DNA of 9,858 nt from a virus (lineage: Duplodnaviria; Heunggongvirae; Uroviricota; Caudoviricetes), in the IMG/VR virus record IMGVR_UViG_2537562191_000046, positions 1-9,858 of that record; one strand, 5' to 3'. A program made the position numbers and the translations under genes. Positions 1 through 317 of the stretch are shown here, in pieces; position 1 is the stretch's first letter; every line of letters begins with the position of its first letter. A model generated the notes under the pieces. It was not told the origin of the DNA and searched no databases. It worked only from the letters and a program-made list of their open reading frames with translations.

Positions 1-317
1 TTACACCGCCCTACTCTAAGCAGAGCGCAGATTCAGGCTAAAGGTACTCACGAAACGCCTGAGCGCATAGAAGACGCTAAGCCAATTAAGTTCATGGCAC
101 AGGACGTGATCTGGCAACAGAAAGAATACAGACGCAATCTGGAGCGAGCGGCCATTGTGTACGCGAATGAGTTTGGACATAAGCAACCAGAAACTGGTGT
201 ATGTCTTCCAAACGTAGCTCTTTACGCGGCAGGCTACCGGAAATCAAAACAACTGACGGCAAGATGACTTGTGTTGGTCGCCAGAAAATGAAATTAGGCA
301 GCAAACCACTTATTTGA
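1..317 (+). CDS. N-family transcription antitermination protein gene, 3' portion, with frame inconsistency. Frame 1 is open from position 1 to the TGA at 265-267; frame 0 (183..317) encodes a lambda-N-like C-terminus.
   Basis: Frame 0 ends ...MTCVGRQKMKLGSKPLI* (stop 315-317), closely resembling the recalled lambda N C-terminus ...ITCSGRQKIKGKSIPLI. Frame 0 has stops at 168-170 and 180-182, while frame 1 is open over the first 88 codons of the window. The position immediately upstream of cIII/kil/gam matches the lambdoid pL operon. Confidence 0.5.

Follow-up and report, generated by a model that had tools for sequence, protein, structure and literature searches.

The question raised by this locus was whether the N antiterminator gene, with which the window begins, is disrupted by a change of reading frame or is complete at its 3' end. 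The window (the whole stretch of DNA analysed, 9,858 nucleotides) corresponds to the leftward early operon of a lambdoid E. coli prophage of the Shiga-toxin type. In the initial annotation, made from the letters alone, frame 1 was reported to be open from position 1 to a TGA at 265-267 and a lambda-N-like peptide to lie in another frame. Three explanations were offered for this arrangement, namely a frameshift mutation depriving N of its conserved C-terminus, a mosaic junction and a sequencing error. The description of frames, stops and ribosome binding site (RBS) was confirmed and proved accurate to the base. Frame 1 (bases 1, 4, 7 and so on) translates as LHRPTLSR...LPNVALYAAGYRKSKQLTAR-stop (in a fuller version of its end, LHRPTLSR...GVCLPNVALYAAGYRKSKQLTAR-stop) and displayed no internal stop before the TGA at 265-267. 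The peptide, MTCVGRQKMKLGSKPLI-stop, was found at 264-317 in the frame starting at base 3, which is closed upstream by stops at 168-170 and 180-182 (positions counted from the translation), and its end adjoins the RBS of the next gene (GAGGTGA at 316-322, with an ATG at 326). The remaining frame contained stops throughout.

Our results point, with a probability of roughly 93%, to positions 1-267 being the intact 3' end of a functional N of the H-19B/933W/HK97 type and to the peptide at 264-317 being an untranslated leftover. The features concerned are listed below, with the basis of each in brackets.

1-267, plus strand: 3' part of the N antiterminator gene, codons 40-127 and stop, of the 933W/H-19B/HK97 type (identity to annotated N)
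208-264, plus strand: codons of the conserved P22/H-19B-type C-terminal tail, CLPNVALYAAGYRKSKQLTAR (homologous N ends)
265-267, plus strand: N stop codon TGA, coinciding with the mosaic joint and with the beginning of the phage-21-type stretch (alignments)
264-317, plus strand: leftover, last 17 codons and stop of a phage-21-type N, MTCVGRQKMKLGSKPLI-stop (DNA homology from 265)
265-328, plus strand: 64-base homology patch comprising the phage 21 N tail, the GAGGTGA RBS and the start ATG (alignments)
326-796, plus strand: next gene of the pL operon, 156 amino acids (list of open reading frames, annotated homologues)

The frame-1 translation was 100% identical to residues 40-127 of N from Stx2-converting phage 86, and over these 88 positions the window differed from 933W N at one residue and from H-19B N at two. 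In 933W and phage 86, the annotated N coding sequence counts 384 bases (127 codons and the stop); its start precedes the window by 117 bases and its last base corresponds to window position 267. In the present copy, intactness was shown from codon 40 to codon 127. Codons 1-39 are located upstream of the window, where a complete gene would have an ATG followed by MTRRTQFKGNSRSRRRERLK..., and in relatives having an identical 3' part they include the arginine-rich motif RSRRRER (residues 12-18). Full-length queries were made with phage 86 N, whose residues 40-127 are those of the window. This protein matched the Pfam profile PF25694 N_peptide (E = 9.8e-16, 58.5 bits for a cut-off of 27.9), its residues 2-127 being aligned with profile positions 6-100 of 100, including the last one, and it also matched PHROG 271 (E = 9.5e-39). 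The same protein was recovered by tblastn in 219 phage records, with identities of 99.2% in HK97, 98.4% in H-19B, and 87% and about 70% in Salmonella phages. More distant matches were the 90-residue N of VT2-Sakai (41%) and P22-type gene 24, the latter via its C-terminal 28 residues only. The operon position likewise fits N, since ORFs for cIII, kil, gam, bet and exo occur downstream on the same strand. These gene names agree with those annotated in the homologous stretches of 933W, phage 86 and E. coli AR-0428, and nutL is annotated upstream of N in 933W. The exact 9.9-kb arrangement of the window was not found among the complete E. coli genomes of the collection searched, where the best coverage was 91%.

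Diverged homologues of this N were found to share a common end, ...YAAG(Y/H)RK..Q(I/L/V)TAR, followed by a stop at the homologous codon. The same tail is displayed by P22-type gene 24 (ST104), by the N proteins of HK620, VT2-Sakai and one Enterobacter phage, and by those of Salmonella phages Oslo, g341c and SI8. Window positions 208-267 encode CLPNVALYAAGYRKSKQLTAR-stop, and a matching end was recorded in eleven named phages and in the 86 loci fetched for this study (see below). Judging from these alignments, ...KSKQLTAR is the frame-1 N family's own conserved C-terminus. Homologues running through to the TGA ending at 267 with a KSKQLTAR-type end, which the initial annotation had named as evidence against a disrupted gene, are exactly what was observed. 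Far from being frame-disrupted and deprived of its conserved C-terminus, N displays in frame 1 the natural and complete 3' end of a known N type. There was no sign either of the prophage being defective for antitermination.

Comparison with named systems gave the same picture. The 127-amino-acid N of HK97, H-19B and 933W has the same stop codon, leftover and downstream 156-amino-acid gene as the window, and the differences, one or two conservative substitutions, are of no substance. For the final Arg, the window has AGA, and 933W and HK97 have AGG, so that positions 264-266 read ATG rather than GTG. P22 gene 24 (in the P22-like phage ST104) and HK620 N share the tail LP.VA(L/I)YAAGYRKSKQ(I/L)TAR-stop with the window and, like the window N, constitute the first gene of the leftward operon. 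Yet, they differ from it in their N-terminal and central parts (the middle of HK620 N resembles phage 21 N), and their stop is a TAA with no 21-type leftover after it.

N proteins bind boxB of nutL/nutR RNA through an N-terminal arginine-rich motif, their middle part binds NusA and their C-terminal region contacts RNA polymerase. The H-19B N of 127 amino acids antiterminates in vivo and, as a purified protein, in vitro together with NusA and NusG, its activity depending on nut and Nus factors (PMC3526286). Point mutations in its arginine-rich motif (residues 12-18) abolish activity, deletions within residues 96-120 impair read-through of the second, distant terminator of a two-terminator template, and residues 121-127 are dispensable (PMC3526286). 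The tail encoded by 208-264 falls inside the region assigned to RNA-polymerase binding in H-19B N. In H-19B, the arrangement is the same base for base (GCA AGA TGA CTTGTGTTGG...TTATTTGAGGTGAGATATG), and since its N is active, the protein ending at this TGA is a working antiterminator. By analogy, the N of the window, two residues different from H-19B N over the part present, would be expected to antiterminate as well, and RNA polymerase associated with it would read through terminators into cIII-kil-gam-bet-exo.

The gene following N (326-796, hereafter orf156) is a homologue of 933W L0079 and HK97 gp45, annotated as hypothetical in 933W, phage 86 and HK97, and its product displayed no Pfam or NCBIfam match. 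Its RBS (GAGGTGA, 316-322) shares its first bases with the end of the leftover. Between orf156 and cIII, two hairpins with T-runs resemble terminators (901-928 and 939-968) and are candidate leftward terminators for N to override; the only other terminator-like match nearby was a weak one inside N (186-198). In 933W, the orf156-cIII interval contains an ssb/ea10-like gene, which is absent from the window and from phage 86. Farther downstream, a complete IS3-family element of the IS629/IS1203 type (1310 bp, 6189-7498, minus strand) was found, with terminal inverted repeats of 25 nt, orfA at 7118-7444 and orfB at 6231-7121. It is apparently inserted in a DUF1627 gene, of which the ORF at 7553-7846 keeps only profile positions 111-153 of 155; a tandem 9-nt repeat at 7650-7690 encodes VQPVQPVQP in this truncated ORF. 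In the closest complete genome, the element is located in the integrase gene instead, indicating that its insertion site differs between relatives. The last gene of the window, at 8689-9858 on the minus strand and opposed to the pL operon, encodes a tyrosine integrase with an arm-binding domain and is overlapped by a small HTH_17 excisionase-like gene (8523-8705, plus strand). The start codon listed for the integrase ORF is a TTG formed by the final three bases of the window, and the true start may be located beyond.

The lambda-N-like resemblance of the out-of-frame peptide was real and not due to chance, as it corresponds to a DNA match with the N genes of phage 21 and HK544. Positions 265-328 matched the 3' end of phage 21 N (last 17 codons, RBS and next ATG) at 63 of 64 bases, the sole mismatch being located at 290 (I to M), and no similarity to phage 21 N was detected upstream of 265. 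The sequence used as phage 21 N showed 100% identity with the antiterminator annotated in Escherichia phage 21 (OL657228). With HK544 N, the match was 64/64. A DNA search with window 225-330 split in two, 225-267 matching N ends such as that of HK620, and 265-330 alone matching those of HK544, mEp043, HK542 and others, annotated as coding. The N proteins of HK544 and mEp043 are composed of a lambda-like body and an in-frame end ...YSKPRSEMGVTCVGRQK(M/I)KLGSKPLI-stop. At the protein level, the 38-amino-acid ORF at 201-317 matched the N-like PHROG 271 at profile positions 153-170 of 176 (E = 2.9e-4). The 3' end of lambda N, ITCSGRQKIKGKSIPLI, is a more distant relative of this tail, with 11 of 17 residues matching.

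In phage 21, HK544 and mEp043, the last 17 codons, RBS and ATG shared with window 265-328 are read in frame and provide the real C-terminus of N, whereas in the window the lambda/21-type tail (...TC(S/V)GRQK(I/M)K...PLI) stands after the N stop, out of frame, and is not the C-terminus of N. Positions 264-317 are a 50-base leftover, most probably untranslated, of a phage-21-type N 3' end and not part of N, the ATG of the leftover (264-266) overlapping the N stop (TGA, 265-267). Neither the gene nor this kind of event is new; literature searches in full text found no explicit description of the leftover.

The mosaic junction, among the three explanations initially offered, is the correct one. 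The joint is placed exactly at the N stop codon, where GTG ACT (Val-Thr) of phage 21 is read as (A/G) TGA CT, and is an ordinary recombination scar. Lambdoid genomes exchange modules at or near gene boundaries. Their mosaic joints and the present one have in common that relatedness changes abruptly where two genes meet and that interchangeable modules lie on either side of a short shared patch. Unlike at a usual mosaic joint, a coding piece of the replaced allele was kept here, with two N C-terminal modules in tandem as a result.

The distribution of the leftover was established from loci encoding this N (80 from IMG/VR and 6 species-representative ones from GTDB), whose 3' flanks were compared. 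An N of 127 amino acids ending with TAR-stop was found in 80/80 IMG/VR loci and the leftover in 54 of these 80. In the other 26, the stop (TAA or TGA) led straight into 10 other variants of about six unrelated kinds. Since these 26 loci keep an intact N, the leftover is not required for N to be intact. The stop codon was TGA in all leftover-bearing loci (57/57) and mostly TAA in homologues without leftover. N genes of the latter kind (P22-type ST104, HK620, Oslo, g341c and SI8) end with ...AGG TAA or ...AGA TAA, followed by unrelated DNA, and leftover-bearing ones with ...AG(A/G) TGA CTTGTG.... The N of the Enterobacter phage is likewise not followed by the leftover. On its upstream side, the 64-base patch was found next to four or more kinds of N, namely those of the 933W and VT2-Sakai types, phage 21 N and the hybrid lambda/21 N of HK544 and mEp043. 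At its other side, at least seven different genes start at the ATG that ends it, with divergence right after this ATG.

Some loci deserve a separate mention. Three of the six GTDB loci were apparently contaminant or mis-binned contigs, and the GTDB set added little on divergence. A 394-bp contig of Xanthomonas pisi DSM 18956 (L097) was 100% identical to the window N and included the start of the leftover, and two Segatella copri MAG contigs (L100 and L102) carried E. coli lambdoid-phage N sequence; contamination or mis-binning in public assemblies is probably responsible in all three cases. In Salmonella phage SI8 (L015) and Enterobacter phage vB_Ecl_MII_001 (L014), the N stop is followed by TTATTCAGGCAGCAAACC... 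and TTATTTTGGCAGCAAGCACAGAGGTGAATATGG, respectively, both resembling the leftover end GGCAGCAAACCACTTATTTGAGGTGATATATG. Both stretches may go back to the same 21-type N end, of which they would be a shorter remnant, or resemble it by chance.

These arrangements allow inferences on how, and in which direction, the original recombination took place, and on the part played by the patch in crossovers. An H-19B-type N with its P22/H-19B-type tail, or a whole immunity-N module, would have been joined to a 21-type N at a point 17 codons from its end, the probable mechanism being illegitimate recombination or recombination at minimal homology. Recombinants with a stop right after TAR would have retained a working N. 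Two factors most likely account for the persistence of the leftover: its 3' end supplies the next gene with an RBS and proper spacing at no cost, and the 64-base patch to which it belongs would offer lambdoid phages a shared homology for the exchange of flanking modules. Red- or RecA-dependent recombination needs a homology of only about 30 bp (PMC2327257), and since the patch exceeds this length and is common to many lambdoid phages, it is a plausible crossover site between immunity-N and downstream modules. Exchange at the patch would keep the leftover near-identical to in-frame copies without selection.

Expression of the leftover was the alternative that survived best, and was still judged very unlikely. 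Either a 17-codon micropeptide would arise when ribosomes terminating N reinitiate at the overlapping ATGA (GTGA in 933W and HK97), or a rare -1 shift near the stop would give an N of 144 amino acids bearing both C-terminal tails; in both cases, the 21-type tail would add an RNA-polymerase contact. Such a role is suggested by the start codon (ATG or GTG) that overlaps the N stop in 57/57 leftover-bearing loci, and by the small frame of 17-19 codons, open in 54/54 complete copies (the other three of the 57 being cut by contig ends). Its variants (KIKLGSKPLI, KMKSGSKPLI, KLGSKLLYEG and KQRGKSIPAYYD) also look like the tails of other in-frame N alleles. Furthermore, few substitutions were recorded in the leftover, as compared with several variable synonymous sites in the last 42 bases of N. 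This low variation may be a hint of constraint and is equally explained by frequent exchange with in-frame 21-type N; the IMG/VR scan gave only N proteins 99-100% identical, with too few substitutions for dN/dS on the leftover.

Yet, no Shine-Dalgarno sequence was present at a usable distance before 264, CAACTGACGGCAAGATGA contained no X XXY YYZ slippery site, and the fold of 240-335 revealed no RNA structure beyond that of shuffled sequences (z = -0.37). On the basis of this fold, an RNA element in the leftover was rejected, as was a programmed -1 frameshift, CAA CTG ACG GCA AGA TGA being devoid of a slippery heptamer. The initial annotation was right in assuming no programmed frameshift in N, the heptamer and the downstream structure both being absent. 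Likewise, 26 of the 80 loci with the same N lack the leftover altogether, and purified 127-amino-acid H-19B N is sufficient in vitro (PMC3526286). The equivalent residues of lambda N (91-107) are dispensable on the construct tested, their removal leaving 36.0% read-through as compared with 38.0% for the wild type (PMC3526286). A split or dual-tail antiterminator, in which the N of Stx phages would be assisted by a separate or appended 21-type polymerase-contacting tail, is likewise very unlikely.

A frameshift in N itself has hardly any chance of being correct. It supposes that the ancestral frame-1 body ran into the ...TCVGRQKMKLGSKPLI tail, until an indel at about 183-264 removed the C-terminus and made antitermination defective. 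The presence of a lambda/21-type tail immediately downstream in another frame agrees with such an event, and RefSeq/PGAP also flags the locus as an 'incomplete' antitermination-protein pseudogene. Yet, no continuous two-frame ORF occurred among the 219 N-matching phage records or the 86 fetched loci, and the same stop after TAR was displayed by 80/80 IMG/VR loci as well as by 933W, HK97, phage 86 and H-19B, which refutes the mutation proposed initially. Moreover, the residues before the stop are the conserved family tail and fill the Pfam profile to its end, the 21-type homology begins abruptly at 265 with none upstream, and H-19B N is functional with the same arrangement (PMC3526286).

The database flag did not alter this conclusion, as the PGAP pseudogene spans only window 199-267, in frame 1, and the full 127-amino-acid ORF is intact where translated. 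In the three complete E. coli genomes inspected (NZ_CP044145.1, at 2987836-2987904, NZ_CP027221.1 and NZ_CP031912.1), whose sequence is identical to that of the window at this locus, N appears only as this 69-nt pseudogene ('antitermination protein; incomplete; missing N-terminus'). The flag looks like an annotation artefact, apparently a recurring one, and is probably due to the fact that no NCBIfam model matches either N type (nor was orf156 matched by any). Public annotation repeats the main error of the initial annotation, for a different reason.

As for a sequencing or assembly error (e.g. a homopolymer miscall) mimicking a frame change, its likelihood is practically nil, for it has nothing in its favour beyond the two-frame appearance and is excluded by the first 330 bases, for which 100% identity was recorded in no fewer than four phage records and no fewer than nine complete E. 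coli chromosomes, the latter from different laboratories and serotypes. The phages with complete identity over these bases include phage 86 together with two newer Stx phage records, and identity was at least 98.5% in the other full-length phage records listed (98.5% in 933W and many Stx phages). Near-full-length matches to them were recorded in 376 genomes.

The correct delimitation of this gene matters because N governs early gene expression in Stx-converting prophages and, via Q, Shiga-toxin release. Calling N broken would wrongly mark Stx prophages as non-inducible, and the PGAP flag, if trusted, would lead pangenome or prophage-integrity analyses astray. Lambdoid module swapping is clearly illustrated by the leftover itself, with a joint located on a stop codon and a 64-bp patch reused between many partners.
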